Source: a virus (lineage: Duplodnaviria > Caudoviricetes). From it: 44,628 nucleotides of DNA. The stretch is taken from positions 1-44,628 of IMG/VR virus record IMGVR_UViG_3300038530_001458. One strand, given 5' to 3'. Below are positions 477-44,513 of this stretch, piece after piece. The translations under genes and the position numbers were made by a program. Position 1 is the stretch's first letter. Each line of letters opens with the position of its first letter. The notes under the pieces are model-generated. The model did no database searches. It was not told the DNA's origin and worked only from the letters and a program-made list of their open reading frames with translations.

Positions 477-2407
477 GTGTTATTGGACATAGCCCGCTTG
501 CAGGGGCATCTGGAGCGGCAGGTGGTGGTGGCTTTGAGGGTCTGTATGTCGATGACTTGTTTAGTACGTTTTTATACACAGGCGACAATAACAGTGCCGT
601 TACGGTCAATAACGGAATTGATTTAAGTGGAGAAGGCGGCTTGGTATGGTTTAAAAACAGAGACACTGCACAGGTCCACATACTGCAAGACACCGCAAAC
701 GGCACTAGCAAGTATTTAAGCTCAAGCAGCACTTCACCTGCAACTTCAATATCGACAGGAATAACATCTTTTAATTCAAACGGTTTTGCTGTAGGGTCTA
801 CTCTTAGCTATTTAACAAGCAAATACGTCTCTTGGACATTTCGTAAACAATCTAAATTTTTTGACGTAGTTACATACAACGGCACAGGAAGCGCACAGAA
901 TATCTCACATTCGCTTGGCAGTGTGCCGGGCATGATCATGATTCATTGCCTTGACGGCACTCATGATTGGGAGGTTTATCATCGATCAACTGGCGCGACT
1001 AAGAGCCTTCATTTAAACAGATCTGACGCTGCAACAACTGACAGCACAGTTTGGAACAACACAACACCCACGTCGTCGGTATTTACTGTAGGCACAAGCA
1101 GTAACGTCAATCAGAACGGTCATGGATATGTGGCTTATGTTTTTGCGCATGACGAGCAATCGTTTGGCACGAATGGTGATGAGGCAATTATTAAATGTGG
1201 TATTTATACTGAATCATCAAGTGCGCAGGAAATCGATCTAGGATTCGAGCCGCAATTTCTTCTTTACAAAGGCGCTAGCGCTGCTGGAAACTGGCGTCTA
1301 CGAGATGTCATGAGAGGAATGTCTGTTACTTCTGGAGTCCAATTAGAAGCAGATAGTGCTCAACAAGAAGGCGTAGAAAACAAGTTTCTTCCGACATCAA
1401 CAGGATTTATTGCTCCAAATCTTTGGTATGGCAGTGGTGTAGAGCTAATCTATATGGCAATTCGCAGGTCACATAAGCCGCCAACTGCCGGAACACAGGT
1501 GTTTGCAGCTCAAGCAAGTAGAAGCTCGGCTGATGGCACTCCTTCAAATCTGACTTACACAAGTAATTTTCCAGTTGACTTGATGTTTAACTTAGGTCGC
1601 ACAGGCAATTCATTAAATATGGTTGCAGTAGACAGATTGAGGGGTGAAAGCAGATATTTGTCGACCTCTGCAGAGTCAGCGGAATCCTCAAGCGGCCCTT
1701 GGAAGCTTGATACCAATGCAGGGGTATATTTAAATGGCAACTTTGGAGCTACTAGCGCCCATGGCGGATTAATGTTCCGCCGCGCAGCAGGTTTTTTTGA
1801 CGTGGTAAATTATACGGGGGATGGTACATATGACGGCAGTAAAACAGTTAATCATAACCTAGGTGTAGCACCTGAGATGATAATTAACAAAAGCAGAACT
1901 ACTACCAATTCTTGGAACACTTATCATACTGCAATCGGAAATACTTATATTATTAGGTTCAACAACAGCGGTAGGACTGGCATAGGGCAAAACTTTAACC
2001 CTACTGCTACTACTTTTGATCCGTTATACGCAGGCAATGCTATTTACAGCTCAAACACTAGCGGCGTTGACTATATATCCTATCTTTTCGCGACTCTTGA
2101 CGGCATCAGCAAAGTTAGCAGCTATACAGGCACAGGTAGCGATCTCAACGTTGACTGCAGTTTTACTGCCGGAGCACGTTTTGTCTTGATCAAACGCACT
2201 GATGGCAGTGGTGATTGGTATTTCTGGGATAGTGCTCGCGGCATTGTCAGCGGTAATGATCCTTATCTGCTTTTGAACTCGACTGCTGCAGAAGTAACTA
2301 ACACCGATTACATTGACCCGCTCAATGCAGGATTTACAGTGACCTCATCTGCTCCTACTGCTCTCAACGCCAGCGGTGGCACGTACTTGTTCCTCGCTAT
2401 CGCCTGA
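473..2407 (+). CDS. Putative receptor-binding/tail fibre tip protein, paralog 1
   Basis: 644 aa, G/S/T/N-rich, repeated FFDVVxYxG and HxLGxxP motifs; collinear paralog of 42046..43998. Confidence 0.8.
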   Translation: MSVIGHSPLAGASGAAGGGGFEGLYVDDLFSTFLYTGDNNSAVTVNNGIDLSGEGGLVWFKNRDTAQVHILQDTANGTSKYLSSSSTSPATSISTGITSFNSNGFAVGSTLSYLTSKYVSWTFRKQSKFFDVVTYNGTGSAQNISHSLGSVPGMIMIHCLDGTHDWEVYHRSTGATKSLHLNRSDAATTDSTVWNNTTPTSSVFTVGTSSNVNQNGHGYVAYVFAHDEQSFGTNGDEAIIKCGIYTESSSAQEIDLGFEPQFLLYKGASAAGNWRLRDVMRGMSVTSGVQLEADSAQQEGVENKFLPTSTGFIAPNLWYGSGVELIYMAIRRSHKPPTAGTQVFAAQASRSSADGTPSNLTYTSNFPVDLMFNLGRTGNSLNMVAVDRLRGESRYLSTSAESAESSSGPWKLDTNAGVYLNGNFGATSAHGGLMFRRAAGFFDVVNYTGDGTYDGSKTVNHNLGVAPEMIINKSRTTTNSWNTYHTAIGNTYIIRFNNSGRTGIGQNFNPTATTFDPLYAGNAIYSSNTSGVDYISYLFATLDGISKVSSYTGTGSDLNVDCSFTAGARFVLIKRTDGSGDWYFWDSARGIVSGNDPYLLLNSTAAEVTNTDYIDPLNAGFTVTSSAPTALNASGGTYLFLAIA

Positions 2408-2446
2408 TGCAGCGGTGGCCGTTATAGTGATGTCAGGAGGCAAGCC

Positions 2447-2785
2447 ATGAGCATTGACCCTGGAACGTATAACTTCGCAGTTCAGCGCCGTGCTGATTGG
2501 AGCGTTTTGCTGCAGTTCAAAGACAGCAATGACGCAGCGATCAATTTGACCGGATCAACTGTTGCTGCTCAAGCTTGGGACAAGGCACGCGCCAATAAGT
2601 ACGCGGACTTTGGAGTTACTTATACAAGTCGGTCTAACGGGCAAGTAACGATAAGTCTGTCTGATACAGACACGACTTTGTTTCCAGATGAGCTGTATTA
2701 CGACGTTTTAGTCACAGACAGTACAGGCCGCAAGGACTATTACCTTGAGGGAGTCATCGTTGTTGAAGAGGGTTACACCACATGA
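2447..2785 (+). CDS. Small virion protein, BppU-N-like baseplate/adaptor domain
   Basis: INLTGSTVAAQ...GQVTISLS..DT...LYYDVLV...YLEG pattern; SD AGGAGG upstream. Confidence 0.65.
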   Translation: MSIDPGTYNFAVQRRADWSVLLQFKDSNDAAINLTGSTVAAQAWDKARANKYADFGVTYTSRSNGQVTISLSDTDTTLFPDELYYDVLVTDSTGRKDYYLEGVIVVEEGYTT

Positions 2786-5700: not shown

Positions 5701-6015
5701 TCAGGTAACCATTTTGGTGTTAGCAGTTGGATCGTCGTCATGAGCTTCCGGTCCGAAGCTTTCAGCCTTGACTTTTGCCATATCAAGTTCTGGCGCGGGT
5801 GCTTTTGGTTTCTGTTCAAACGAAGCTAGCCATTCACGCAACAAGTCCCCTGTCGGAGTGCCTTTAGGCCATTTAACGTGACGCAAGATCATTTTGTGAT
5901 CTGTAAACAGTCGAGACGATCTGCCAGACAAAACCGTGTAAGTAATTTCAGGACCTTCACGTCTACGATTTCTCTCGATCCAAAGTTGACCAGCAACAAA
6001 CCGTTCACCCTTCAT
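5701..6015 (-). CDS. Hypothetical protein (MKGERFVAGQ...)
   Basis: Protein-like composition from Met45 of the listed ORF; followed by a - strand terminator. Confidence 0.55.
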   Translation of the reverse strand: MKGERFVAGQLWIERNRRREGPEITYTVLSGRSSRLFTDHKMILRHVKWPKGTPTGDLLREWLASFEQKPKAPAPELDMAKVKAESFGPEAHDDDPTANTKMVT

Positions 6016-6790
6016 GCCAGAAATCCCTGAGATTGGTATTGGTGCGGTGCAAGTGCCGGAGATTCCGGCCTGGCGTGCCATGCCTCCACAGAGTATTCCG
6101 GTTGAGCCGCCAGTGACATTACGAATTGGTTTTCCTATAGCTGACATTCCTGGCTGTGTTGAAACCAGAAACTCAGGAGCAGGCGATAGGGAGATCTATA
6201 ACACCGATCCAAAAGGCAACATCACTGTTTGTGGCGGTCAGATGCCGTCTTACAAACCTATTGACTACACACCTGGAACGTTGGTGTATGGCGCGGCAAA
6301 ACCTCCACCGCCACCAGAAGAAGAAGAGGTAGAGCCTAAGAAAGAAAAACCGGCCAGTGAACCAAACCAACCGGTGGTCTCTCTTCCGTCAGGTCGTGGC
6401 ATTCCTGACATCCCATTAGATAGCAATCAATTGCCGTGTCCGCCACTGGATGCATTACCTATTGGTGTCAGAGGTAAACAAGGAACTGGGATTGTCATTG
6501 GATATAAGCGTGTCGATGGTCAGTGCATCACGATGTATGACCGCTTGCCAATCGACAAAATCATCGATAACTACTTGCCTCCTGCGCCTGTTGCGTTGTC
6601 TACTGCTGCTATTGCTGCAACGGCTGCAACATCAGCCATTGTGGCTAAGCCGTTAGGTGATTACGTGTTGAAACTGGTCAAACCAACGGTAAAGAAGGTG
6701 GTAAAAAAGCTTAAGGGGATGATTGGGAAGAAGCCTCGCCCTGAGTCTGTTGCTGAACGGGTGAAGTTTCAGCGTTCTCTCCGTAAGTAA
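6014..6790 (+). CDS. Pro-rich protein with Cys pairs and a C-terminal hydrophobic/basic helix (envelope cassette)
   Basis: 258-aa ORF; PPPPPEEEE linker; ALSTAAIAATAATSAIV segment followed by a Lys-rich helix. Confidence 0.7.
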   Translation: MPEIPEIGIGAVQVPEIPAWRAMPPQSIPVEPPVTLRIGFPIADIPGCVETRNSGAGDREIYNTDPKGNITVCGGQMPSYKPIDYTPGTLVYGAAKPPPPPEEEEVEPKKEKPASEPNQPVVSLPSGRGIPDIPLDSNQLPCPPLDALPIGVRGKQGTGIVIGYKRVDGQCITMYDRLPIDKIIDNYLPPAPVALSTAAIAATAATSAIVAKPLGDYVLKLVKPTVKKVVKKLKGMIGKKPRPESVAERVKFQRSLRK

Positions 6791-7439
6791 TCTTGTGGAT
6801 GTGGGGCGGGATAACGCCTGGCGGATTCTGCAGAACTACGTCAGCACAGATTGACGCATAAGGCGAATCAGGGTGAAAGCTAATGCCTTCTTTCATCAGT
6901 GCAGCGCAGTTCTTAAGTCTGGCGATTTCGTAGTTAAGTCGCTTGTCAGCAAGTTGGGCGTCCAACAAAGCGACCTGCTTCTCAGCTGCTTTCCTGCAGC
7001 TTTTGACGTGGGAGCGGTCAAGCGGTACTGAGATTGTTGCTGTAATGCCGCCGTTGATTGAGTAATTAGTCTTCTGGCCTGTTCTGACTGGACGTAAATA
7101 AAGAACATTTCCTGGATTGTCAGGCACACCGTCCGGAATAGGATTTCCCTCTGGATCTGTCGCACCAACTAAATCGAGCGTGTCATATATCGGTTCTTGG
7201 TAGTAGCTTTCATAAGGATGTGCCCAGCTAGTGGTTGTACTTAGAAAAGGATTGATGTGAAGAGTTGCTCCTTGACAAGATATCCCTGCATAGTTGAACC
7301 CAAATGTGCGTGATGGCACGACTTGCACAGCTTGGTTTGTAACCGACCCAGAACTGTTAGCTACTGGAGCGGCAGTGCTAGAGACCTGTGCTTGTGCTGG
7401 AGCGGAAAGTAGCAGAAGCGTTGCTATGACTCGCTTCAT
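6711..7439 (-). CDS. Secreted protein with beta-strand/long-helix architecture (envelope cassette)
   Basis: Signal peptide MKRVIATLLLLSAPAQA; four Cys; ATGA coupling to the upstream gene. Confidence 0.8.
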   Translation of the reverse strand: MKRVIATLLLLSAPAQAQVSSTAAPVANSSGSVTNQAVQVVPSRTFGFNYAGISCQGATLHINPFLSTTTSWAHPYESYYQEPIYDTLDLVGATDPEGNPIPDGVPDNPGNVLYLRPVRTGQKTNYSINGGITATISVPLDRSHVKSCRKAAEKQVALLDAQLADKRLNYEIARLKNCAALMKEGISFHPDSPYASICADVVLQNPPGVIPPHIHKITYGENAETSPVQQQTQGEASSQSSP

Positions 7440-7855
7440 TGTGTAAACGTGCTTGTCGTCTCAGTTATAGATTCGATGTCGGTGTCACGGTTGATGAGTG
7501 TATGGTTCACCAAACCTGGGCCAGACAAAGTCTCTACAAACTGCATTGCTTCGCCTTGATTCACGATTGTCCAAGTTGGCTTGGTTGCAGCATCAATGCT
7601 GGTCCATTTGCTTGTGATGCCTTGAATGGTGTTTGACGTTGTCGTCAGACCCATTGGAGCGATAGCGGCGTCAGTCTTAATATTTGTGCCACTGACTGAA
7701 TACTCGTAACCAGTTCGGTACTCATATGAGTTGATGACCTCTGTGACTTTGGTCTTGGTCGTTGTTGTGGAAGAGAGAACGCCTTGCGAAAAGTTTGGAA
7801 CGACAGGCACTGCGACTGCTGGTGCGGCAACAAGCAAAAGCAGCAACAGGATCAT
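7436..7855 (-). CDS. Secreted Thr/Ser-rich beta protein, paralog B
   Basis: Signal peptide ending PAVA; shares motifs with 7852..8346. Confidence 0.8.
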   Translation of the reverse strand: MILLLLLLVAAPAVAVPVVPNFSQGVLSSTTTTKTKVTEVINSYEYRTGYEYSVSGTNIKTDAAIAPMGLTTTSNTIQGITSKWTSIDAATKPTWTIVNQGEAMQFVETLSGPGLVNHTLINRDTDIESITETTSTFTQ

Positions 7856-8346
7856 TTGATTGTCAGTTCTTGGATGACTTGACCAATTGCAGTTGTGCCA
7901 GCACCACCAGCTGTAACAGTAAGAGCGCCATCAGTTGCAATCGTGCCAGCTAGCGTTCCAGCAACTCCTCCCGATGTAGTTGTTGTATTGCCGAACACTG
8001 GCAGTGCTGGGACTACTCCGGCGGTGACTGTTGTTGAGAGAACGGTTGGGACATCGTCTCCTTCTGTATAGCTCTCGCTGTAGCTAAAAGCATCACCAGC
8101 AGTAGTGATGCTGTAAGCACCAGGAGTGTAACCAAGGGCGGTCCCTGAAGTAAGAGCGCTAAGAGTAGGAGCAGTGCCCAAAGTGACGTTAGAGCCAGAT
8201 ACCGCCATAGAAGACGGTTGTCTAATGGCAACGGATCCTGCGCCATCAACCGACAATGAAACGCTTGACTGAATTTTATGGGTGATGTCAGCCTGCGCTG
8301 GAGCGGCAAGCAAGCTGGCAGCTAATGCCAGAAATGCCTTTTTCAT
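7852..8346 (-). CDS. Secreted Thr/Ser/Gly-rich beta protein, paralog A
   Basis: Signal peptide MKKAFLALAASLLAAPAQA; ATGA coupling at both ends. Confidence 0.8.
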   Translation of the reverse strand: MKKAFLALAASLLAAPAQADITHKIQSSVSLSVDGAGSVAIRQPSSMAVSGSNVTLGTAPTLSALTSGTALGYTPGAYSITTAGDAFSYSESYTEGDDVPTVLSTTVTAGVVPALPVFGNTTTTSGGVAGTLAGTIATDGALTVTAGGAGTTAIGQVIQELTIK

Positions 8347-8624
8347 TGGATTCCGGCTTTAGTGTCCTTATTGTCTACGTTAACGTTTTTCTCGTCCTTC
8401 TTCTTTTTGTTTAATTTGCCGAGTGCTGGCGTATAGGTCGCGGCTGTACCAGTCAGAAGTGACGCAGGAAACGTGGGATCTACCGCCTGCGAAAAAATTC
8501 CAAGATAGTTAGCGGTGAGGATGCCCATTGACCAAAGCAGGATCGTGACTCGCACAACGTCACCTAGCCAAGAGCTGCCTTGCTCTTCTTCCTTTTCTTG
8601 CTGATCTACAGAGTTGGTGGCCAT
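8343..8624 (-). CDS. Small two-segment membrane protein, holin-like candidate
   Basis: Acidic N-terminus, two hydrophobic segments, basic C-tail; lies near the endolysin. Confidence 0.6.
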   Translation of the reverse strand: MATNSVDQQEKEEEQGSSWLGDVVRVTILLWSMGILTANYLGIFSQAVDPTFPASLLTGTAATYTPALGKLNKKKKDEKNVNVDNKDTKAGIQ

Positions 8625-8666
8625 AGCAGAACAGAGCTACTGTTACAGGGTAACGAGTCCAAGCAA

Positions 8667-8840
8667 ATGCTTCTCATCCTCAAGCCAATTTTGATGACCG
8701 CCTGGAAGTCAAGAGCGTTCAAAGAGTTGATTGTGGCGATGCTGGAAAAGATCGTTGCAAGCACAGACAACGATCTGGATGATCTAGCGGTAAAGCATGT
8801 ACGCGAGATGCTGTTACCTGACACAAGGATTGAAAAGTAA
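8667..8840 (+). CDS. Small amphipathic lysis-associated protein (STDNDLDD motif)
   Basis: ATG at 8667 inside the listed ORF; immediately upstream of the endolysin. Confidence 0.65.
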   Translation: MLLILKPILMTAWKSRAFKELIVAMLEKIVASTDNDLDDLAVKHVREMLLPDTRIEK

Positions 8841-8843
8841 GTA

Positions 8844-9587
8844 GTGTCAGGCATTATCAAGCTAACCCTGCTGCTGTTGGGCATGGCTTTTGCTCTATTG
8901 CCGTTTTTCCAGTTTTTCCGTGGTACGCCCCATCAGTTGGCTGCAATTAAGGAGCTTGAGCAGTCCGTGCCGGAAGAGCTATTGGATGAAGATGCAGACT
9001 GGTTCCAGGCTTGGAAGGAAAGCGGCTACGACCAGCAGATCTATATGCCTTACTTCAGACAGCTCGACAACAAAACAGGCACTGGTATCAGAGAGTGTTT
9101 TAGTTCAGCGGCAGCCATGGTGGCTGCGTATTACAAAAAGGTTCGCACGGATGATGAATACAATGCGATCCGTGCTGAATTTGGCGATACCAACTCGGTA
9201 GAAGCTCAGTTAGCAGCGTTGCGAAGCCTGGGTTTAGAGGCTGAGTTTCGCAAAGATGGCGATGCTGACATGGTGGAACTTGAAGTTGAAAATGGCAGAC
9301 CAGTTTTGGTTGGATGGTTACATGCAGGTAACATGCTTCGTGGTGAACCACCAATGTGCAGTGGCTTGGGTTGCGGGCATTGGAGCGTAATCAGCGGTTA
9401 TGCAGGAAAAAACAGCACCGATCCAGAATGGATCATGCAAGATCCGCGTGGCTATCCAGAAATGGAAAAAGGAGGCCATAGCAACCCGCATTTGGGGCGT
9501 AACGTCCGTGTAAGGCAAGCTGCGTTCTATCAACGGTGGCAGCATGAAGGCCCTAGAACAGGCTGGGTAATTCTGGTTAACGATTAA
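8844..9587 (+). CDS. Putative endolysin, C39-like (papain-fold) peptidase
   Basis: PYFRQLDN...RECFSSAAAM (Cys), GHWSVISGY (His), DPRG (Asp); start may be the internal Met near 8883. Confidence 0.75.
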   Translation: MSGIIKLTLLLLGMAFALLPFFQFFRGTPHQLAAIKELEQSVPEELLDEDADWFQAWKESGYDQQIYMPYFRQLDNKTGTGIRECFSSAAAMVAAYYKKVRTDDEYNAIRAEFGDTNSVEAQLAALRSLGLEAEFRKDGDADMVELEVENGRPVLVGWLHAGNMLRGEPPMCSGLGCGHWSVISGYAGKNSTDPEWIMQDPRGYPEMEKGGHSNPHLGRNVRVRQAAFYQRWQHEGPRTGWVILVND

Positions 9588-10997: not shown

Positions 10998-11250
10998 CTC
11001 CGGAGCGGCAGAGTTCGTTGAATACAGTGGCGACAAGGCTTTCAGCCTGTTGCCTGTCCAGACCATAGCTAGACCGACGACGAACCTTCGTAACAGCTTT
11101 ATGAAAATCACTGGTGGTCAGTCCTAAATGGTTAGGTGGCTGCATGAGGCGCTCACGGATCAATTCTGACCTGTGAACACCTTTTTCTTTGGCTTCAGCA
11201 GAGAGTCTTTCGATCAGCTCTTCTGGAAGGAGAGTTTCAACTTTTTTCAT
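10987..11250 (-). CDS. CopG/RHH-family DNA-binding protein
   Basis: MKKVETLLPEELIERLSAEAKEKGVHRSELIRE fits the RHH pattern. Confidence 0.75.
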   Translation of the reverse strand: MKKVETLLPEELIERLSAEAKEKGVHRSELIRERLMQPPNHLGLTTSDFHKAVTKVRRRSSYGLDRQQAESLVATVFNELCRSGDGD

Positions 11251-11259
11251 GTGTGGACG

Positions 11260-11403
11260 TTACTTACGCTTTGAGCGTTTCTTGTTTTTTTGAGACGGTT
11301 TGATACGCGGTTTAGCTGGTTTGTATTTTATGCGAGCAACAGTCTCGTGATAGCCAGGAGGTTCTGGGACGCTTGCACGTTCCAAAATCTTTGTCCAGTT
11401 CAT
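11260..11403 (-). CDS. Small basic protein not in the ORF track (MNWTKILERASVPEPPGYHE...KKRSKRK, 47 aa)
   Basis: Translated manually; fills the gap between the helicase and RHH genes. Confidence 0.6.
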   Translation of the reverse strand: MNWTKILERASVPEPPGYHETVARIKYKPAKPRIKPSQKNKKRSKRK

Positions 11404-11660
11404 CCCTCACGCGCGTATAGATGCAAAATATGTCCCCATACTTCAAAAGCCAGTGATGCCAAAGGTTTTGCATGGGGACAATAGGTAGGGACAATTAAAT
11501 TTGTCCCCTTTCTTGCTCAGTAAGTTCAATTTCAACCGCACCATCCATCAAAGGGGGACATGAAGGATTGTCCCCATACTGTTGTCCCGTACCAAAAGCC
11601 TCTTCATCACTGGATTCTTTAGTTGAAGGGGACACGTTCCATCCCTCTCCACGCGCGAGA
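11400..11660. repeat. Putative replication origin: clustered GGGACA/TGTCCC iterons
   Basis: Copies at 11431, 11474, 11488, 11502, 11554, 11569, 11583 and 11628 in both orientations, bracketed by CATCCCTC..ACGCGCG at about 11401 and 11640. Confidence 0.65.
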
Positions 11661-13750
11661 TTAGCTATATAGTTCTTGGTACGGGAACCTTTTGAGACGC
11701 TTGAGACAATAAGTTGCTGAGCTTCCAGCCTTTGGAGCGTCTTCTTAATTGCAGCTGGAGTGCCGCCAATCAACCGATCTGCAATGAGATCAGTTTTGGT
11801 GCGTGACTCGGGGTAAGCAGTCCTCAAGCGACTAAGCACTCTGCCTTGCACAGAGGATGGAGCGTTGCTGTCCGGATCCATTTCAGGAGTGAAGTCAGCG
11901 ATGTAAAAGTCCAAGTCCTCTGTCTGGCCAAGAATCAAATGCGTACCAGAGCGCCCTGAGCGGCTCTTTTCGACTTCAATCAACCTTTCATGCGGTTTGA
12001 GCTGCTGCTGCTCCTTGGAGCGCTTCTGAGGGTCGCTTTCAGGGCGCTTAAGGCTCCAGGTCTCATCTACTGCATCACGAATGGCTGAAGTGCCACGGAA
12101 ACCGCCATTTTTGTTGGCGTGGTGAATGATGATAATGGTTGTCGCGTGGAACAGTGGACCGTTGTTTTTTGTAAGCCAATACAGGGGAGTCGCAAAGTCA
12201 GACTTGTTTTCATCAAAAGCCCGACCACCAGAGCAACCGATTAAGGAATCAATGACAACCAGCTTTGGCTTGTACTTGTCCATTAGCTCGATGAACTGCG
12301 CATAGCGTTGAAGCTGCCAGTCAGTCTGGATGTAAGTCTCATCTGTGATTGGGAAATCAGCTTCTATCAGTTGTTCTTTAAGTTGGATCAAAGGCTGATC
12401 ACCATTGAGCAGCAAGACAGGGCCTTGTTGAATTGGAACGTCAGCACCGCGCACTCTGAAGGGCTTACCACTGACAATGTGCTTAGCGAGAGCCCATGCA
12501 GCAGTTGACTTACCATCACCACCAGCGCCATAGATCAAGATGGTTGAGGGGTGAGGAAGGACATCAGGGATAAGGTATTCACGTTTATCTTCAAGCTTCA
12601 TTAGTTCTGTAGCAGTCATAAGGGTTTCTTTTTTCTCGTAGGCCATCTGATCAACGATCAGCTTTTCAAGCGCGGTTTGATCGCGATAGCCAGCTTGAAG
12701 AGCAAGAGAGTTGAGCTTGTAGTTGACCTCAGCAGGATTATCAAGCTTGAGGATAGCCTTGGCGCGTTTCATCACCTCCTCGTATTCAAGAGTTGACTGC
12801 CTGTACTCTTGAACCTGCTTGTTATCTGCGTCTTCAACGATCTTTGCAATGTCGTCAGAAAACCGATGGCGGTGAGGGTCTTCCAAGTCGGCTAAGCGAA
12901 TCAGTGTGCCCAGGCCAACGCCATTGCCTTTAAAAGAGTGCCAGATGTTCTCGCAAGGATCGTTGTCTTCCCATTCATCCTTGAAGTCTGGATCATCTGC
13001 TGACCAAGAGGTCCAAAGCATTCTCCCTGCTTCATTAGGCAAAGCAGAATTGATTGCCATTCCAATTTTGATCCAGTGGTCGCGTGACCCTTTGCCTTTG
13101 TTGGGAATCACGCTGAGGCAGTCTTTGACGATTTGAAAAATCTCGTCAGTGGTGCGGTCAGAAAAATCAAGGTCACGTTTGATGATGAGCTTTGGAGGCT
13201 CACGCATTTCAGCGAGCAACCAATCTGGAGCGACTGGAATATTGTTGAGATCGCCTTCAAGCTTGTACTCACCAGGCTCAGAGTTGTCACCACCTGGGTA
13301 AGCACCAAAAATTATGCCTTGCCTCTTCGAGTTCCAAAGGATCTCATAATCCTCTTTGCCAAGGCCGCGACCTTTAACATCCTTCCAAAGGGGTTCTGGA
13401 ACGCGGAAGATAAATTTGGCGGCATTCTGCTTGGTTGACGTAACCATTGGAGCTCCAGCAAGTGACTCGCCCCATTGCTTCATGCAACGCTTGAGGTTGC
13501 GGTCTACATCAAGAAAGACGATGCCATTGCCGCGGATGCCAGTAAAAATGCCAACAGCTTTGAGGTCGCTGTTGCGTTGGAGCGCTAAGGCAACGTCTGC
13601 TGGCCCAAACTTTTGGTCGAAACTGGCTTTCAAGGGTTGCTTGCCACAAAAGCCACGCTTTGCACTTTTGGCGTGGATTGGAGCATATACAAGCCCTTCA
13701 GGCAAAGCCTTGACGAAGTCTTGAAGCGTCATGTAAGATTGTAAAGTCAT
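11495..13750 (-). CDS. Bifunctional primase-polymerase / PriCT-2 / RecA-like (AAA_25) helicase
   Basis: Prim-Pol motifs (VGIFTG, FLDVD); WIKIGMAI...WS PriCT-2; Walker A GAGGDGKS; Walker B VVIDS; IHHANK; RGTSAI. Confidence 0.9.
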   Translation of the reverse strand: MTLQSYMTLQDFVKALPEGLVYAPIHAKSAKRGFCGKQPLKASFDQKFGPADVALALQRNSDLKAVGIFTGIRGNGIVFLDVDRNLKRCMKQWGESLAGAPMVTSTKQNAAKFIFRVPEPLWKDVKGRGLGKEDYEILWNSKRQGIIFGAYPGGDNSEPGEYKLEGDLNNIPVAPDWLLAEMREPPKLIIKRDLDFSDRTTDEIFQIVKDCLSVIPNKGKGSRDHWIKIGMAINSALPNEAGRMLWTSWSADDPDFKDEWEDNDPCENIWHSFKGNGVGLGTLIRLADLEDPHRHRFSDDIAKIVEDADNKQVQEYRQSTLEYEEVMKRAKAILKLDNPAEVNYKLNSLALQAGYRDQTALEKLIVDQMAYEKKETLMTATELMKLEDKREYLIPDVLPHPSTILIYGAGGDGKSTAAWALAKHIVSGKPFRVRGADVPIQQGPVLLLNGDQPLIQLKEQLIEADFPITDETYIQTDWQLQRYAQFIELMDKYKPKLVVIDSLIGCSGGRAFDENKSDFATPLYWLTKNNGPLFHATTIIIIHHANKNGGFRGTSAIRDAVDETWSLKRPESDPQKRSKEQQQLKPHERLIEVEKSRSGRSGTHLILGQTEDLDFYIADFTPEMDPDSNAPSSVQGRVLSRLRTAYPESRTKTDLIADRLIGGTPAAIKKTLQRLEAQQLIVSSVSKGSRTKNYIANLARGEGWNVSPSTKESSDEEAFGTGQQYGDNPSCPPLMDGAVEIELTEQERGQI

Positions 13751-13760
13751 CGGACAGCAA

Positions 13761-13803
13761 ACCCGGTCTGCCCCTGGCGTTTAGGGCAGGTCGGGTCTTT
13801 TTT
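13761..13803 (+). terminator. Hairpin plus T-tract antisense to the replicase leader
   Basis: ACCCGGTCTGCCC...GGGCAGGTCGGGT-CTTTTTT. Confidence 0.65.
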
Positions 13804-13845
13804 ATCCTACCCGAGGTTGACTGCCCGTCAATCCCGGCTTACAGT
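13804..13845. promoter_or_regulatory. Divergent sigma70 promoters sharing the palindrome TTGAC-N5-GTCAA
   Basis: + strand TTGACT(13817)-N17-TACAGT(13840); - strand TTGACG(13831)-N16-TAGGAT(13809). Confidence 0.75.
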
Positions 13846-13890
13846 ATCAAGGCGTCTAAATGAGACGCGACACTTACCAAGACACACACC

Positions 13891-14499
13891 GTGAAAGTTT
13901 CCGACGATTTTTTGGCAGTACTTGAGCCAGAGACTGAAAGCGCCTCATCTGCGGACGGCTACTTGCGTCCAAACAAAATTGAATCAGGCAAGCCTGCTGT
14001 TTTTGCTTTGCTTGAAGAGGATCCTCTTGAGTATTGGCTGGTCTGGGGCACGCCTAAAGAGGGTGGCAACAATAAGCCTTTCCGATTCATTGAAAAGCCC
14101 TCTGATGAGGACATTGAATTGGAATTGGGGCGTGACTTTAGCCGCGCGTTGAACTACGACAAAACTGCTGAAGACAAGGCATATAAGTGCCTGACTTGGC
14201 CGGTTTACAACTGGGAAGAGAAGCGCGTGCAAGTGCTTGAGGTCACACAGATCTCAATTTCTCGACAGTTCGTCAAATATGGTCTGCATAAGACCTACAG
14301 CAAAAACCTTCTCGACTGGGATTTCCAGATGGAAAAAGGCAGCGTTGGTGGTAAGACCAAGTATGACTTGATGGTCATCCCTCGTGACGAAGACGAGCAC
14401 GATGACATTCAGATGGCAAAGGATTGGAAGACTGCTCAAAAGGGAGGTTTTGACTTGACCCGTTTGATTGGTGGTGGCGATCCTTTCAAGGAAGCGTGA
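13891..14499 (+). CDS. Probable ssDNA-binding protein
   Basis: Acidic and aromatic-rich; PVYNWE..VQVLE.TQ.SI and DF..K...KT.Y pattern of phage OB-fold SSBs; replication context. Confidence 0.55.
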   Translation: MKVSDDFLAVLEPETESASSADGYLRPNKIESGKPAVFALLEEDPLEYWLVWGTPKEGGNNKPFRFIEKPSDEDIELELGRDFSRALNYDKTAEDKAYKCLTWPVYNWEEKRVQVLEVTQISISRQFVKYGLHKTYSKNLLDWDFQMEKGSVGGKTKYDLMVIPRDEDEHDDIQMAKDWKTAQKGGFDLTRLIGGGDPFKEA

Positions 14500-14565
14500 G
14501 TTTAGTGGGCATCAATTTTCGACTGATTGTGTAAGTCCCACGTTCCACCACCACCAAGAGCCACC

Positions 14566-15054
14566 ATGAGCCAAGTTGCAAAGCGCAAAGGACTCGCCAG
14601 AGTTCTGCGAATAGTCGGTCACAAAGACATGCTTGTCGTTGAAGTCGTACAAGACCCGACTGGCGAATGTCTTTCTCAAGAGACGCTTTGCTTTCTCAAT
14701 AAAACCAAGCAACTTTGGATGCTTGATGAGCTTGAAGAAGGCAATGAGATTGGCATTGAGTTGCCATTAAAACCTGGTCGCGGATTTGATCCAGTTACCT
14801 GGGCTTTGCCAAACCACGATCAACCTGAGTATCTACGAAAGCTAACTCCTTCCGTGGATGAAAAGCTCATAGCTGTATCTAGCGACAACTTGACCACTAC
14901 GAATGAGGCTAAGTTTTCATTTGGAACAGCTAAGTTCAAAGGCGAAGAAGCTGAATGGCTAGAGCAGTTCTGTGGCAAGTACAGGAACAAGGGTGATGCT
15001 TTTGAAGATCTTTTCAGGGCAGCACTGCCACTGCTAAAACTCTTACAGAGCTAG
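14566..15054 (+). CDS. Hypothetical protein
   Basis: ATG at 14566 after a CCA-rich leader. Confidence 0.65.
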   Translation: MSQVAKRKGLARVLRIVGHKDMLVVEVVQDPTGECLSQETLCFLNKTKQLWMLDELEEGNEIGIELPLKPGRGFDPVTWALPNHDQPEYLRKLTPSVDEKLIAVSSDNLTTTNEAKFSFGTAKFKGEEAEWLEQFCGKYRNKGDAFEDLFRAALPLLKLLQS

Positions 15055-15064
15055 TTTGGGAGCT

Positions 15065-15088
15065 GGGGGCCTTGCGCCCCCTTCTTTT
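15065..15088 (+). terminator. Intrinsic terminator overlapping a possible promoter (TTGCGC-N16-TATATT)
   Basis: GGGGGC-CTTGC-GCCCCC-TTCTTTT. Confidence 0.65.
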
Positions 15089-15119
15089 AGGGATATATTA
15101 GTTTTGGGAAAGAGTGCTT

Positions 15120-15281
15120 ATGGAACTGCCCGAGACAGAAATGGCATTTATGGAAGACGGCTCCGTCTCTGTGACTGTTGGCGATTTGACTGGGGTTGTA
15201 TCAAGTGCTCATTTAATAGAACCCAAAGCCAATCAGCTCCGTCAAAGGTGGCTGCAAGAAAACGCCATTCATGACGACTGA
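15120..15281 (+). CDS. Small protein not in the ORF track (MELPETEMAF...VSSAHLIEPK..., 53 aa)
   Basis: Translated manually; more protein-like than the listed 15056..15274 frame. Confidence 0.6.
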   Translation: MELPETEMAFMEDGSVSVTVGDLTGVVSSAHLIEPKANQLRQRWLQENAIHDD

Positions 15282-16086
15282 CACACAAGATCTTTTGGCT
15301 TCACTGCGGCGATGGCAGTTGGAGCAAGACAACTCAGGACGATTTCGTGTTTACAGGGATCAACACGGACAGATTTATCACTCCGTCACCCATATCCTGA
15401 AGAACACAGCCCCTCAATCACAGAAAGATGCTTTGGAGCGCTGGTCACAACGTGCTGGCAGTGGTTTGGAGCGTGACATTGCTTGTGACCGTGGCACCAT
15501 TGCTCATGAACATTGCGAATATGTACTCAAGACCGCAGCAAAGTTGGCTCGACAGAGCGCTAACAAGAAGGGTTCATGGAAGGTCTGGAATGATGGATTG
15601 GCTCGCCCTCCTAAAGCAATCACCAGTTGGGCACTCAAAAAAGCGAAGGAAGGGTCGCCAAAGGTTGCATGGCCAGCCCGTGAGTACGCCAGAGGTTTAT
15701 CCGACTGGCTGGTAAGTGGAACGGTAACGGCCATTCATGCCAGTGAATTCAGCGTTAGTAGCAATGAAGGTTTTGCTGGTACGGCAGATGCGTTGATCGA
15801 TACGGCATTAGGTCTGACGATCTGTGACTTTAAGACGACAAGCCGTGAGGCTGATAAGCCTGAAGCGTGGTTAAAGGATCACCAGGATCAACTTGGTGCT
15901 TATAGCCTTGCCTTGCGTGAGAGAGCAGGGATTCGTGTGGCTGCTGGAGCGGTAGTAATTGCGAAGCCAAACGGGAATGTGCAGCTACGCATGTTGAGTG
16001 AGCTTGAGATGAGAGGTTGCGAGGCCAGATGGACTGAGCGCAATAACCTCTACAAGGAGATGCTGCTAAACGGTGAAGTGATGTAA
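15271..16086 (+). CDS. PD-(D/E)XK exonuclease (RecB/Cas4-like fold)
   Basis: YHSVTHIL, RGTIAH, E...FAGTADAL, ICDFKT, QLGAY motifs. Confidence 0.88.
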   Translation: MTTDTQDLLASLRRWQLEQDNSGRFRVYRDQHGQIYHSVTHILKNTAPQSQKDALERWSQRAGSGLERDIACDRGTIAHEHCEYVLKTAAKLARQSANKKGSWKVWNDGLARPPKAITSWALKKAKEGSPKVAWPAREYARGLSDWLVSGTVTAIHASEFSVSSNEGFAGTADALIDTALGLTICDFKTTSREADKPEAWLKDHQDQLGAYSLALRERAGIRVAAGAVVIAKPNGNVQLRMLSELEMRGCEARWTERNNLYKEMLLNGEVM

Positions 16087-16232
16087 TGGAAGAAGCATTT
16101 GATCTGCTGTATCGCGGGAAGTGCAACGTCTGGGTTGCAGCAGAAAAAGCAGGCGTCTCACCGGATGAGATGAAACGCCTGTTCAAAGCTTATGTATCAG
16201 AGGAGCACTCTTCTGTGACTCTACGTTCGTAG
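16086..16232 (+). CDS. Small HTH-like protein not in the ORF track (MEEAFDLLYRGKCNVWVAAEKAGVS..., 48 aa)
   Basis: TAATG coupling to the nuclease gene; AAEKAGVS helix-turn-helix-like. Confidence 0.55.
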   Translation: MEEAFDLLYRGKCNVWVAAEKAGVSPDEMKRLFKAYVSEEHSSVTLRS

Positions 16233-16393
16233 TAGCGCGTTAGACGTAAGCAGTCATTGGCGCGGACAAAGTTGCCCTGTTGTTCAAAGATGGCTGCCCT
16301 AGCCGTTTCGTAACGGATAGCGTTAGGAAGCATGTCTGTCGGAACGCGAGAACCAGGGGGAGAAAACTTGTTGCCGTTGAGGATGCTGCTCAC
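16190..16393 (-). CDS. Hypothetical early protein
   Basis: GTGA coupling in the leftward operon. Confidence 0.6.
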   Translation of the reverse strand: MSSILNGNKFSPPGSRVPTDMLPNAIRYETARAAIFEQQGNFVRANDCLRLTRYYERRVTEECSSDT

Positions 16394-16653
16394 GAGTTGT
16401 ACTTCTGGTTGTAAGCGGCAGTGTGCATCTCATTGAGAGTGATGGGAGGCTCACCGCCTGAGTCATCCCAAAGGTGGTCAGGAGTTGGGTCAAAGTCAAG
16501 TTCATTTTCCAACTGTGGAATGATTTCATCTTCTAGGAGCATCCGCATGGAACTGGTGAGATGTTCATCCATCTGATGACGCTTGTTTTCGCGGTCAATG
16601 ATGGCCTTAAGATCCTTGAGGATCAATTCGATTTGTTTGAATTCGTTCACCAT
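16390..16653 (-). CDS. Hypothetical early protein
   Basis: ATG ORF, overlaps both neighbours. Confidence 0.65.
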   Translation of the reverse strand: MVNEFKQIELILKDLKAIIDRENKRHQMDEHLTSSMRMLLEDEIIPQLENELDFDPTPDHLWDDSGGEPPITLNEMHTAAYNQKYNS

Positions 16654-16919
16654 TCGACCTCTTGAATAAGTTGGTTGAGAGTCTTGAGAGATTGGAGACT
16701 GGAGATTTGTCGCTGACCATCGCTGAGACCCTTCTGCAAGGCCTCAGGATCGGCAGTACGGACAACTTGCTCCATCTCTTGCTTAACGAGCTTGAAGCAG
16801 AATTCAATGCGTTCTGCAGGCTTGCAGGCCAAGTGGCTTGAAGCTTTAGCTTTCTGCCCGCCAAGAATTAGGCAAAGCAGTTGGTTGATGGAGCGGTTGC
16901 AGTCTGGAAGTGTGATCAT
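16647..16919 (-). CDS. Hypothetical early protein
   Basis: ATGA coupling. Confidence 0.65.
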   Translation of the reverse strand: MITLPDCNRSINQLLCLILGGQKAKASSHLACKPAERIEFCFKLVKQEMEQVVRTADPEALQKGLSDGQRQISSLQSLKTLNQLIQEVEW

Positions 16920-17086
16920 TTGAGGTTGCGGTTGCGTTCAGCGGCGTCAGGAATGGAAGCTAAATATTCTTCCCATTCCGCTTCCCGCTCTCGTGCTTCG
17001 ATTTCTTCCTCTGATAAAGGAGGCCAAGGCTCCTTGTATTCAGATGGCAAAAGGTCGTCGATGTCTTCGTTGCGGATGATGGTCAC
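16916..17086 (-). CDS. Small acidic protein not in the ORF track (MTIIRNEDIDDLLPSEY..., 56 aa)
   Basis: Translated manually; GTGA and ATGA overlaps fit both neighbours exactly. Confidence 0.7.
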   Translation of the reverse strand: MTIIRNEDIDDLLPSEYKEPWPPLSEEEIEAREREAEWEEYLASIPDAAERNRNLK

Positions 17087-17532
17087 TTGCTTTGCTCCAC
17101 TACTTTTTCTGTAGCAACGGCCCTCTCTACTGCAACTTTTCTGGCCTCGTGTTCTGCTTTTCGCTTGGCATGTAGAGTAGCTGTGCGCTCGATTTCTGCC
17201 TTCAAGTTAAAAGAAGCGTCTTTCTCTTCAAAAGTCCGCTCACAATCGTCAAGCACATTATCAGCAATAGATTCAGCCCATGCATGGTTGCCGTAATACT
17301 CAGTGCCGTAATTGGGCCTCTGCAAGGGATGTTCTTTCATGCTCTCCACCTCTTCGTCGGTAAAGTCGCACTGGAGCTTCTCGACGTAGTAGGTGTCCTC
17401 GCTGAACATAAAGTCAATACCACGCGCTATAGCGAGCCAGATCAAATGCTCAACAGAGCGGTGTTGATTCTTGGCTACAGCAGTCAGATAATGATGCTGC
17501 TTGTCGGTCAGACGAAATGAAACGGTTTTCAT
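17083..17532 (-). CDS. Protein with N-terminal RHH-like domain
   Basis: MKTVSFRLTDKQHHYLTAVAKNQHRSVEHLI; AC-rich leader. Confidence 0.65.
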   Translation of the reverse strand: MKTVSFRLTDKQHHYLTAVAKNQHRSVEHLIWLAIARGIDFMFSEDTYYVEKLQCDFTDEEVESMKEHPLQRPNYGTEYYGNHAWAESIADNVLDDCERTFEEKDASFNLKAEIERTATLHAKRKAEHEARKVAVERAVATEKVVEQSK

Positions 17533-17567
17533 AGGTTGGTTGATTGGAACGGTGTGAGACAAACGTC

Positions 17568-17921
17568 TCAAAACTTTTGAGACAGGCCACCCATGCGGGC
17601 AAGCCTTTCGTATTCACGGACAAGACGTGCATAATCTTGAACGTTGCCCTGTTCGTAAGCGTCGATCAGCAGATGTTTGGTCATCCGCATCAATGGCTCA
17701 CGATCTTCCAGGGTGATCTCTGGCATTGGATCGGCTTCGATCGTGTGGTCTTCCTTTTCACGCAAAATGTCTGCCTCATCTATGTCGCGATAAGCGGTAG
17801 CGCGAGACAGACCGTATTTGCGTTGGAGCGTTGCAGCCACATCGGCTTTCTGAAGACCCATATCCAGGAGCTGTTTGGCGTGCTCCTGGTGGGCTTCCAC
17901 TTGTTCTGGGGTTCGCTTCAT
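17568..17921 (-). CDS. HTH DNA-binding protein
   Basis: ADVAATLQRKYGLSRATAYRDI. Confidence 0.7.
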   Translation of the reverse strand: MKRTPEQVEAHQEHAKQLLDMGLQKADVAATLQRKYGLSRATAYRDIDEADILREKEDHTIEADPMPEITLEDREPLMRMTKHLLIDAYEQGNVQDYARLVREYERLARMGGLSQKF

Positions 17922-18169
17922 GCCTCAATGTTGTCCTCCTTGCGGATGTGAGCAGTGAGAGTTTGGATGAAGCGCTCTTGTGTGGCGCGGTCGCAGAAAG
18001 CAAAGCAACTGTTGATGGCATCATTTAAGGAGTCTGTGCCAACCCAAAGCTGGATCTCCTCTTTTTTCCCATCAACCTTGTCTGAAACAGCAATGAGGCC
18101 ACTGCACAGGCAGACAAAAGAATCGCCTTCCATGTGCCATGTAGTTTGTTCTGAGAGTTCTTTTCTCAT
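17918..18169 (-). CDS. Hypothetical early protein
   Basis: ATG after an AC-rich leader; ATGA coupling. Confidence 0.65.
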   Translation of the reverse strand: MRKELSEQTTWHMEGDSFVCLCSGLIAVSDKVDGKKEEIQLWVGTDSLNDAINSCFAFCDRATQERFIQTLTAHIRKEDNIEA

Positions 18170-18225
18170 TGGTAAGGTTGGTGTTGTTGGAGCGGAGCAA
18201 GGGTCATCCCCTTGACTCTCGTCTT

Positions 18226-18254
18226 ACAATACAAGCCATTCAAGGAAACCGCAA
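18226..18254 (-). promoter_or_regulatory. Sigma70-type promoter for leftward early genes
   Basis: TTGCGG-N17-TATTGT on the - strand. Confidence 0.55.
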
Positions 18255-18263
18255 GCCGCCATT

Positions 18264-18450
18264 CATGACTGATTCAGCGCCTACAAAAACTATTCACTTC
18301 TGCGCTGATGAGTGGATGCTCCTCCTAGAAGCTCTCCATTGCTTTAAAGACACTCCCGACGGTATGCGGGCAAGTGGTCGCTTGAACTGGATTCGAGCCA
18401 AGCTTGAAGAATGCAGGGCTGAGGAATGCCTCATTCGACTCAGCGCATAA
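18264..18450 (+). CDS. Hypothetical protein (MTDSAPTKTIHF...), lone rightward gene; start coordinate approximate
   Basis: Internal ATG of the listed ORF; ends at the hairpin at 18448-18474. Confidence 0.45.
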
Positions 18451-18474
18451 AAAAAGCCCGCAATTAAGCGGGCT
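18448..18474 (-). terminator. Intrinsic terminator of the first early transcript
   Basis: AGCCCGC-TTAATT-GCGGGCT-T-tract on the - strand. Confidence 0.8.
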
Positions 18475-18784: not shown

Positions 18785-18785
18785 T

Positions 18786-18920: not shown

Positions 18921-19062
18921 AATTGGTTGGTCATTTGGTTTCGTTGGGTGCAGTCTCGTGAAGTTGTATTTCGTTGAAACTGCTGAACCTGACAAGCGAC
19001 AGCAGCCCGGGGGCTGTGCACTTTTGGAGCGATTTGCTCCCAGATTGTCGAGGTTCTCCTCT

Positions 19063-19233: not shown

Positions 19234-19260
19234 AAGGGTCTGAAGTTGTGAGCGTGGGGA

Positions 19261-19745: not shown

Positions 19746-20999
19746 ATGACTACAAAAGCAGACCCGGTAAACCTGAGATGGGCACAGGGTCAAGTCTTTT
19801 CAAGCAACAAACGATTCCGCGTTTTAGTTGCCGGGCGTCGATTTGGCAAATCGTACCTTTCATGCGTTGAGCTGTTACGTGGGGCGCTTAACAGGCCTGG
19901 CGAAACGTTTTTTTATTGTGCTCCGACGTACCGAATGGCCAAAGATATTGCGTGGAGAGCGTTAAAAAAGCTAGTTCCGAAGGTTTGGATCCACACCAAG
20001 AACGAAACGGACCTCAGGATCGAGCTAATTAACGGTTCAACAATTGAATTGAAAGGTACTGAAAACGCAATGGCGCTTCGTGGCCGCAGTTTGAGCGGTG
20101 TAGTGCTGGATGAAGCAGCATTTATGGATTCAGAGGTGTGGTTTGAGGTAATTCGACCTGCATTAGCGGATAAAGAGGGTTGGGCGTTGTTTATTTCGAC
20201 GCCAGACGGTACAGCTAGTTGGTTTTATGACTTGTGGTGTTATGTCCCAGACGACGAAACAGGAGATTGGCAGCGATGGAGCTATACAACGATTGAAGGA
20301 GGAAACGTCAGTAAGCACGAGGTTGAAGCAGCCCGCGCTCAACTTGATTCGCGCACGTTCCGCCAGGAATTTGAAGCGTCCTTCGAGAACTTAACTGGTT
20401 TGGTCGCCATCAGCTTTTCTGATGACAACATTTCAACAGAAGCAAAGGACATTTCAATCCAGCCGTTGCTATTAGGCGTTGACTTCAACGTTGATCCCAT
20501 GAGCGGTATTTGCGCGGTCAAGGATCAGGACACGTTGTACGTGTTTGACGAGATTACATTGACTGGTGGGGCGACCACTTGGGATTTTGCAGAAGAAGTC
20601 ACTCGCAGGTATGGGGTAGATCGCAGAGTTATTGCATGTCCTGACCCCACAGGCGGTGCAAGAAAGACAAGTGGTGTGGGCGTGACAGACCACGCAATCC
20701 TCAGACGCAGCGGCTTTACGGTTCAAAGCCCTAGATCACCGTGGAAGATTCGAGACAAGATCACAGCGGTCAATACAGGCCTAATGGATGCTTCTGGAGC
20801 GCGAAGGGTCAAGATTCATCCGCGTTGTAAAGAGTTGATCAAGTCATTGCGAACGCTGACTTACGCACCAGGCACTGGTCTGCCCAATAAAAACTTAGGT
20901 GTAGACCACGCTTTCGACGCTTTTGGGTACTTGGTGCTGCAGCAATTCAACCTTGCGAAGCCTGAGACTTTAGGGCCAACCAGCTATCGGCTTTATTAA
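19746..20999 (+). CDS. terL: Terminase large subunit
   Basis: AGRRFGKS Walker A, VVLDEAA Walker B, ISTP coupling motif, GVDFN and DHAFDAFGY RNaseH-like nuclease motifs. Confidence 0.96.
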   Translation: MTTKADPVNLRWAQGQVFSSNKRFRVLVAGRRFGKSYLSCVELLRGALNRPGETFFYCAPTYRMAKDIAWRALKKLVPKVWIHTKNETDLRIELINGSTIELKGTENAMALRGRSLSGVVLDEAAFMDSEVWFEVIRPALADKEGWALFISTPDGTASWFYDLWCYVPDDETGDWQRWSYTTIEGGNVSKHEVEAARAQLDSRTFRQEFEASFENLTGLVAISFSDDNISTEAKDISIQPLLLGVDFNVDPMSGICAVKDQDTLYVFDEITLTGGATTWDFAEEVTRRYGVDRRVIACPDPTGGARKTSGVGVTDHAILRRSGFTVQSPRSPWKIRDKITAVNTGLMDASGARRVKIHPRCKELIKSLRTLTYAPGTGLPNKNLGVDHAFDAFGYLVLQQFNLAKPETLGPTSYRLY

Positions 21000-42038: not shown

Positions 42039-42045
42039 GGACAGT

Positions 42046-43998: not shown

Positions 43999-44003
43999 TC
44001 ATC

Positions 44004-44513
44004 ATGGAAATCCGTAACCGCTCCACTGGTGCTCTCACCACCGTCAGTCAATTTAAGGCTGAAAACCCCAACACCAGCTTTCCCAAGCAGATCACAACCG
44101 ACGTTCTTGACAGCTACGGCTACGACGCTGTGCTGAATGGAGCGGCAGCGACAGTGACTGCTCCATATGGCGTCAGCACCCGTGATGGTGTTGAGGAAAT
44201 TGACGGCAAATGGTTTACTAAGTTTGTCGCTGGTCCCATCTTTACTGACACTACAGACGAGGAAGGCAACGTCACTACCGCTGCTGACAACGAGGCTGCA
44301 TACCGCGCCAGGATTGATTCAGAGGCTGGAACGTCAGTACGTGCGGAACGCGATCAAAAGCTGACTGCTTCTGACTGGACGCAGATGGCTGATAGTCCTT
44401 TGGCTTCTGACAAGAAGACGGAATGGGCTACTTATCGTCAAAGCCTGCGTGATTTGCCGACAGCTAGTGGCTTCCCTCACACGATGACTTGGCCTGAAGA
44501 GCCCGGTAGCTGA
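44004..44513 (+). CDS. Tail fibre assembly chaperone
   Basis: VRAERDQKL..SDWTQ..D, WATYRQSLRDLP, WPEEP. Confidence 0.88.
   Translation: MEIRNRSTGALTTVSQFKAENPNTSFPKQITTDVLDSYGYDAVLNGAAATVTAPYGVSTRDGVEEIDGKWFTKFVAGPIFTDTTDEEGNVTTAADNEAAYRARIDSEAGTSVRAERDQKLTASDWTQMADSPLASDKKTEWATYRQSLRDLPTASGFPHTMTWPEEPGS

Follow-up and report, generated by a model that had tools for sequence, protein, structure and literature searches.

The 44,628-nt virus record IMGVR_UViG_3300038530_001458 (the whole stretch is called the window here) is a complete circular-mapping phage record with an end overlap of 55 bases. The phage is long-tailed, its early block runs leftward, and the record is matched in marine metagenome runs. 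The window carries a dispersed, polar DNA word, TGGA(G/A)CG, whose strand preference flips next to a repeat array within the 3' end of a primase-helicase gene. We read this word as the template site at which the phage primase-helicase lays primers, with the repeat array as the likely origin, and give that reading a probability of roughly 0.48. The features concerned are the following.

511..44144, both strands: dispersed TGGA(G/A)CG, 64 copies on + (37 TGGAGCG and 27 TGGAACG) and 14 on -; TGGTGCG is weaker (18/11)
7954, 10075 and 10846, - strand: further copies left of the likely origin
11378..11641, - strand: left-side copies in or beside the likely origin (11635 TGGAACG, 11588 TGGTACG, 11537 TGGTGCG, 11378 TGGAACG)
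11405..11660, no strand assigned: likely replication origin, with inverted TGTCCC/GGGACA repeats and ACGCGCG bounds at 11409 and 11651
11431, 11475, 11488, 11502, 11555, 11569, 11583 and 11629: positions of the TGTCCC/GGGACA repeats
11677..11864, + strand: right-side copies about 60 bp apart (11677 TGGTACG, 11733 TGGAGCG, 11797 TGGTGCG, 11858 TGGAGCG)
11495..13750, - strand: primase-helicase, 751 aa, with an AEP prim-pol domain (residues 6-186), PriCT-2 (208-287) and a RecA-type SF4/RepA-like helicase (about 380-623)
11495..13750, - strand, C-terminal part of the protein: winged-helix-like domain (about 630-700), then a low-confidence tail overlapping the origin repeats
13891..14499, + strand: predicted gp32-like single-stranded DNA-binding protein (SSB), TM 0.63 to a gp32 cluster; a homolog weakly matches SSB PHROGs
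15271..16086, + strand: PD-(D/E)XK exonuclease (PF12705, phrog_298), an alternative reader of the word
19746..20999, + strand: terminase large subunit (terL), the map start, with the lowest motif density in the next 6.5 kb

An exact count over both strands gives 37 copies of TGGAGCG on + and 5 on -, and the coordinates listed in the first-pass annotation were all correct, with zero omissions and zero surplus; 13 copies lengthen to TGGAGCGG, as it had said. TGGAGCG ranks first among 7-mers in the window for strand skew, with no other 7-mer equally skewed, and also for excess over an order-2 Markov model (37 vs. 4.0 expected). Across 300 synonymous codon shuffles, the null for the + strand was 7.9 ± 1.9 (maximum 14; z 14.7), while the reverse-strand word, observed 5 times, had a null of 2.8 ± 1.3. 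The chance level of 2-3 per strand assumed earlier was thus too low on +, although the excess holds. On our own gene set, 22 of the + copies lie in plus-strand genes, 13 in minus-strand genes (12 had been reported) and 2, as reported, between genes. Since the excess beats synonymous shuffling and the word is read in all three frames in genes of either direction, codon or protein bias is excluded as its cause, and the analysis supports the earlier view that the signal has a direction of its own, whichever way the genes run. Consistent with this exclusion, 32 of 43 codons following xxT GGA in the window end in CG, compared to 42 of 160 after other Gly codons. G-richness of the + strand, seen also at four-fold sites, was likewise rejected as an explanation, being too weak for a single-word excess and common to the Sak-type phages described below.

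The motif is degenerate: TGGAACG (27/9 on +/-) ranks second and TGGTGCG third, TGGT(G/A)CG being a weaker form of the word, and TGGA(G/A)CG occurs once per 0.7 kb in the window. The consensus pooled from relatives is strict at positions 1-3 and 6-7, takes a purine at position 5 and favors A at position 4. Spacing in the window is random (coefficient of variation [CV] 1.0, P 0.6), so that the 1.2-kb mean spacing once taken as a sign of Okazaki length lends no support to priming.

The same polar word, with its polarity taken relative to the primase gene, is kept in three clades of relatives. In 78 loci of close relatives, TGGAGCG counts 946/375 and TGGAACG 717/137; in 55 loci of a clade whose primase is 33-39% identical to that of the window, the counts are 495/148 and 623/200, respectively. 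A third clade, of higher guanine-plus-cytosine (GC) content and with a primase about 48% identical, uses CTGG(A/C)RC, in which the last base is relaxed (CTGGAGC 580/125 in 28 de-replicated of 80 loci). No comparable polar excess was seen in 15 other phage records, of which 13 are named cyanophages; the closest were S-CBS2 (15/7; control 7/6) and KBS-S-2A (TGGAACG 12 vs. 8.2 ± 1.9). S-LBS1 and S-2L encode AEP Prim-Pols of other kinds; in both, TGGAGCG stayed within the codon-shuffle range, or at its edge, on either strand. A triple-motif scan of viral contigs (4 of 64 parts, 79 flanked loci) returned mostly tandem repeats and none with a window-type primase, and a scan starting from a deep-branching primase gave no further clade.

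We then considered the repeat array. Its inverted repeats form two units in the 3' end of the primase gene, and their letters vary with primase lineage (TGTCCC/GGGACA in the window; TGTCCA, TTGTCA or TTTCCG elsewhere) while layout and spacing are kept; the array is, from this sequence layout, a likely replication origin. The DNA that encodes the unstructured C-terminal end of the primase-helicase overlaps these units, both in the window (11405-11660) and in homologs (L003-L220, L524-L603). The polarity of the word flips at the right edge of the array, at about 11,650, with copies roughly every 60 bp to either side; the statement that polarity never switches is therefore wrong once the variants are counted. 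Within 300 bp of the switch in relatives, main-strand sites divide 105 vs. 15 by side and opposite-strand sites 11 vs. 93, as counted in the 45 of 59 loci where the anchor pattern was found (the positions are homologous and so not independent, and one anchor is off by 46 bp). From origin to terL, 8 near-complete genomes together hold 137 top-strand and 7 bottom-strand copies, compared to 43 vs. 45 in the 4 kb on the opposite side, and beyond 4 kb left of the origin the top strand prevails again. In the first two clades, a copy of the word often occupies a fixed slot within each repeat unit. As would be expected of a site for an AEP primase, copies stand on both strands at the putative origin, those on the opposite strand being few in the third clade. 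A search of Rfam gave no match.

The protein linked to the word likewise has the makeup expected of an AEP primase, namely a prim-pol fold with conserved acidic residues and a helical domain downstream. In structure comparison its primase domain matches pRN1 ORF904 (3m1m; Z 11.1, root-mean-square deviation 3.3, 164 aligned), with D81, D83 and E136 invariant, and its helicase domain matches T7 gp4 (1cr0; Z 16.3) and RSF1010 RepA (1g8y; Z 15.4). The PriCT_2 domain after the catalytic core (residues 208-287, E 2.8e-15) is assumed, by analogy, to bind the template. Searching the PDB by sequence with a primase-helicase profile gave weak ATPase matches only. The SSB and exonuclease genes adjoin the primase gene in divergent orientation, and the three occur together in all 148 loci having at least 5 kb upstream.

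These features suggest how replication might proceed. The winged-helix domain would bind the iterons and the origin would open, whereupon the minus-strand copies within the origin could prime the leading strand of a fork running rightward in window coordinates. SF4 helicases such as T7 gp4 have 5'->3' polarity. Traveling 5'->3' on the + strand, the helicase would let the fused primase encounter the + copies, which would act as lagging-strand priming sites, the dense 11677-11858 set first and then those round the whole circle; a short fork in the other direction would use the additional - copies, which lie up to about 4 kb to the left of the origin. That the array works as an origin, which way the fork runs, and that the primase and not the linked SSB or exonuclease is the reader are our inferences. 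Of the three candidates named by the first-pass annotation, i.e., Prim-Pol priming, a Chi-like site and a packaging or ejection cue, priming is the best supported, through the origin flip and the co-variation described next and not through spacing.

To link the word to its reader, we compared the base that precedes it. One group of phages tolerates T at this position (T group), whereas the other groups are C-only; control TGG contexts did not differ between flank groups. T:C before the word was 154:116 vs. 34:165 in high-GC groups (independent site clusters, p 5e-19) and 26:20 vs. 20:47 in low-GC groups (p 0.006), or 16:9 vs. 20:47 (p 0.004) after removal of one intermediate locus, with the caveat that one member of the T clade (L110) is C-rich. 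Within the T group, high- and low-GC members do not differ in flank (p 1.0). In trees of 60 loci picked from larger sets, the T group is a single clade for primase, exonuclease and SSB (support 0.84, 0.97 and 1.0) that spans high and low GC, whereas the terminase tree sorts by GC class and not by flank group. Thus, of the genes earlier proposed to co-vary with the word, primase and nuclease have phylogenies that match the flank, and terminase does not. T- and C-type high-GC phages have 12 common blocks of at least 300 bp at 93% identity or more (the best 3,089 bp at 99.1%), compared to zero such blocks between GC classes, which suggests from sequence exchange that T- and C-type phages meet in the same host cells. 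If they share hosts, a host enzyme should force one flank rule on both; since the flank instead tracks a phage module among phages that exchange DNA, a phage-encoded reader is favored, most likely the AEP primase. A pyrimidine at -1 in 77-85% of sites also fits primers that start with a purine.

Several observations weigh against priming by this enzyme. In the flank comparison, the T group was delimited after the counts were seen, GC class is a mere proxy for host, the low-GC contrast outside the module has p 0.17, and in most genomes of either flank group the structural regions favor C. Old sites persist, with 50% kept vs. 17% for neighboring words, and the flank difference could be inherited history. 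Because primase, SSB and exonuclease are never split in the 148 loci, the flank test cannot pick out the primase among them. Third-clade origin units mostly lack a minus-strand copy (7 vs. 5). A lagging-strand array should be spaced more evenly than chance, whereas the CVs of TGGA(G/A)CG across 8 genomes are 0.86-1.51 and no genome is spaced more evenly than expected at random (P<0.05 in only 3 of 56 pattern-genome combinations), and gaps reach 8 kb, often in the site-poor head genes. The two copies described for NrS-1 (PMC7102993) give no direct precedent for genome-wide use.

Further contrary evidence comes from sister phages (G019-G022; L508-L516) that have the same virion backbone and a terminase 84-86% identical to that of the primase-type phages, together with an early module of exonuclease, RusA and Sak (and a Mom-like protein in G019) in which no primase or helicase was recognized. 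In the 12 kb before terL, these sisters have no excess of the word (1, 1 and 1 copies vs. a null of 1.1-1.4). However, three of them keep an excess in the tail genes without this primase (18 vs. 4.0, 10 vs. 3.4 and 8 vs. 3.2), and their tail copies are kept between genomes in 12 of 28 cases vs. 18% for neighboring 7-mers. Blocks of at least 93% identity linking Sak-type to primase-type phages number zero, the best reaching 74-88%. Random spacing and Sak-type tail copies are thus poorly explained by priming. It is possible that looser sites of the form YTGGNRC, of which the window has 147 with a largest gap of 2.5 kb, and exchange of modules account for the gaps and the Sak-type tail copies.

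The strongest rival, which we regard as possible though doubtful, is that picocyanobacterial RecBCD recognizes the word as its Chi site. These phages, which have no recognizable annealing protein, would then use host RecBCD/RecA for concatemers; top-strand copies would halt RecBCD entering at the right end, and copies flanking the origin would rescue broken early forks. The Chi-like site proposed earlier stands as a serious contender, by way of picocyanobacterial RecBCD and not of the Bacillus subtilis or Staphylococcus aureus words then cited. Marine Synechococcus and Prochlorococcus have recBCD, according to PMC5101192. Relative to terminase, the word lies on the top strand in 8 of 8 genomes, as does active Chi in the Rec-less lambdoids covered by PMC12315714, and its absence near the Sak-type Rec module, with retention elsewhere, is the pattern of Fig. 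7 there. Raw density peaks just before terL (pooled bins of 49 and 41 vs. 1-6 in head genes), and random spacing also fits. Three annotated Sak/single-strand annealing protein queries and RusA had zero matches in 246 primase-type loci and segments, among which 24 weak matches were found to an unannotated MED4-184 gene adjoining the exonuclease VIII of that phage. The third-clade words GCTGGAGC (283/76) and GCTGGCGC (151/52) are the same as or one base off published Chi words, which include GCTGGCGC for Pseudomonas (PMC12315714) and the candidate GCTGGAGG (PMC8022716). Since Chi likewise points away from origins, the switch at the array is compatible with this view.

To assess Chi in host DNA, we drew on loci chosen by petB sequence from 119 matches: 16 were picocyanobacterial (188 kb in total) and 10 were short and Prochlorococcus-like (32 kb). 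TGGAGCG is skewed 55:21 in host-like DNA, within the top 2.3% of 1,624 words. However, around petB in the 188 kb of picocyanobacterial DNA, TGGAGCG is not strongly over-represented (76 vs. 58 expected, rank 1,569 of 15,868; TGGAACG 35 vs. 38), and the host-like TGGAACG is skewed opposite to TGGAGCG (unique sites, 8:24 and 32:16, respectively). Over codon shuffles, the excess near the right end is not above that in tail genes (in the window, 23 vs. 8.3 and 28 vs. 4.8), nor is the right-end fold higher in high-GC genomes, though raw density is. Fixed slots inside iteron units, as in two clades, are not a known feature of Chi, and a phage that encodes an exonuclease and an SSB is not plainly Rec-less. 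The flank tracks the phage module across GC classes and among phages that exchange DNA; specificity did not follow the host, as judged by hosts assigned from GC class and DNA exchange only.

An improbable alternative is that another protein of the module reads the word, either the exonuclease, with SSB, pausing or stopping there while resecting, or the helicase being loaded there. In its first form this would be a Chi system of the phage's own, with a rule for end protection and recombination set by the virus and drifting with its module, an idea we likewise rate as improbable. The flank trait fits the exonuclease and SSB trees equally well, the three-gene module is never split, word density peaks round the SSB and exonuclease genes at up to 3.2 per kb, and such a reader would unite a Chi-like distribution with phage-linked specificity. 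Against it, the nuclease is a 271-aa single-domain PD-(D/E)XK protein without an evident scanning domain, whose closest PDB match by sequence, to MGME1, is weak (E 0.14) and would suit primer removal equally, and the distant phrog_298 exonucleases of the Sak-type sisters have no polar field beside them. We know of no precedent for a phage-encoded Chi analogue read by an exonuclease or SSB. A duplex DNA site for a phage regulator or a packaging or ejection protein (stoperator-, KOPS- or terminase-small-subunit-like) is very unlikely, for although the ~60-bp spacing near the origin could suit a protein array and the top-strand bias agrees with packaging direction, orientation is independent of transcription, and neither a promoter nor the terminase genes mark the switch, which lies at the repeat array. 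The packaging or ejection cue suggested earlier is not supported, as the flank ignores the terminase tree and sisters with 84-86% terminase identity lack the word upstream of terL.

Gene relatives suggest a cyanobacterial host for the window phage. For one window gene, 416 of 426 matched records were counted as Synechococcus, Prochlorococcus or cyanophages; 415 of these were so named, and the other was an uncultured Mediterranean phage. Plasmid matches of the window primase were nearly all cyanobacterial. The family is widespread and uncultured, probably with picocyanobacteria as hosts; in virome collections, 341 stretches match the primase-helicase family and about 2,500 match the terminase. 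A scan of bacterial genome contigs found 11 loci, zero of them titled cyanobacterial. Contigs of the family (L214-L220) sit in bacterial genome bins with seven different titles, a placement that is most likely misbinning and unfit as a host assignment.

Other observations concern the gene content and the genome ends. In G013, G010 and about 100 loci or segments of the primase type (e.g., L518:7067-9052), the primase gene is followed directly by that of a family A DNA polymerase, with 24-27% identity to annotated phage polymerases; present in many relatives, it was not found in the window or its close group. A cluster at 5701-8884 (phrog_570, 848, 650, 564, 721) is common to T4-like and T7-like cyanophages and is 88-90% identical across primase clades. 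A small helical open reading frame at 19261-19650 (-), divergent from terL, is a candidate terminase small subunit. Contigs aligned over 11,200-21,000 (contigs only) had no genome ends in view. In the first 6.5 kb past terL of 7 high- or mid-GC genomes, bottom-strand copies of the word number 20 vs. a codon null of 7.3, summed over partly homologous sites; this excess would suit end protection. One contig starts with 24 tandem copies of the 8-bp unit CGCGCCTR (L211:112-303).

A second polar word, (G)CCATTCA(T), lies on the top strand, mostly in the early region (window 5830, 12971, 15265, 15731, 18236 and 18259). Independent of the replication module, it is found in relatives of both the primase type and the Sak type, upstream of terL and no more than about 12 kb from it, and CATTCAT counts 154/3 in the third clade. 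It could be a regulator site, a terminase site or a host signal itself.

In the literature searched, which included few subscription papers and no supplements (e.g., the Chi tables of PMC12315714), the word, a picocyanobacterial Chi and a polar field of phage primase sites were undescribed. New here are the degeneracy of the consensus, the switch at the origin, the comparison with Sak-type sisters and the test of the flank. If the primase is the reader, then for an uncharacterized primase-helicase family common in viromes the recognition site, how it varies by clade and which way the fork runs can all be read from the genome, and a 250-bp origin becomes available for reconstitution. The changing repeat letters at fixed spacing offer a natural series for mapping winged-helix specificity. 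If Chi is correct, this would be the first candidate Chi of picocyanobacteria, none having been found in the literature searched. The word also shows that polar sequences in phages can look like Chi by the published criteria (strand, right-end bias as judged by raw density, and loss close to Rec modules) and yet track a phage gene; these criteria by themselves do not name the reader.

Known replicons resemble the window in part. RSF1010 oriV combines iterons with the priming signals ssiA and ssiB on opposite strands, served by the RepA helicase and the RepB' primase, and the alpha protein of phage P4 unites primase, helicase and winged helix. The window is like RSF1010 in its iterons, putative opposite-strand priming signals and RepA-like helicase, and like P4 alpha in its one fused protein; both differ in having one or two origin sites and not a genome-wide field. 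The closest annotated match to the primase half is CyRepA1 of the Synechococcus elongatus plasmid pANS (27% over residues 34-287, E 3e-11), although pANS has 4 copies of the word in 7.8 kb and no polar field; two of its copies lie downstream of repA, at 4379 and 4516.

For lambdoid Chi, PMC12315714 describes top-strand orientation, right-end bias and loss near the Rec module in mosaics. The window phage is like the Rec-less, Chi-rich lambdoids LLS and MD8 described there in its top-strand placement, its higher raw density toward the right end, its loss near the Rec module of mosaic sisters and its similar letters, and unlike them in its dense origin switch, module-linked flank, exonuclease and SSB. 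Among AEP enzymes, the sites given for NrS-1 polymerase are 5'-TTTGGTTA-3' and 5'-GTGG-3' (PMC8718748), with only two copies of the 8-nt site, one per strand at the proposed origin (PMC7102993), and that of the lactococcal phage GP55 is different, unrelated and looser (PMC12205980). NrS-1 is thereby a precedent for an AEP site that is long and contains TGG. NrS-1 and pRN1 ORF904 (5'-GTG-3') have, like the window, an AEP fold followed by a helical domain and a TGG/GTG core, and NrS-1 is also alike in carrying its site on each strand of a proposed origin. In contrast to both, the window has 60-90 copies, polar round the circle, and its enzyme joins a PriCT-2 helical domain to a RecA-type SF4 helicase instead of D5/SF3.

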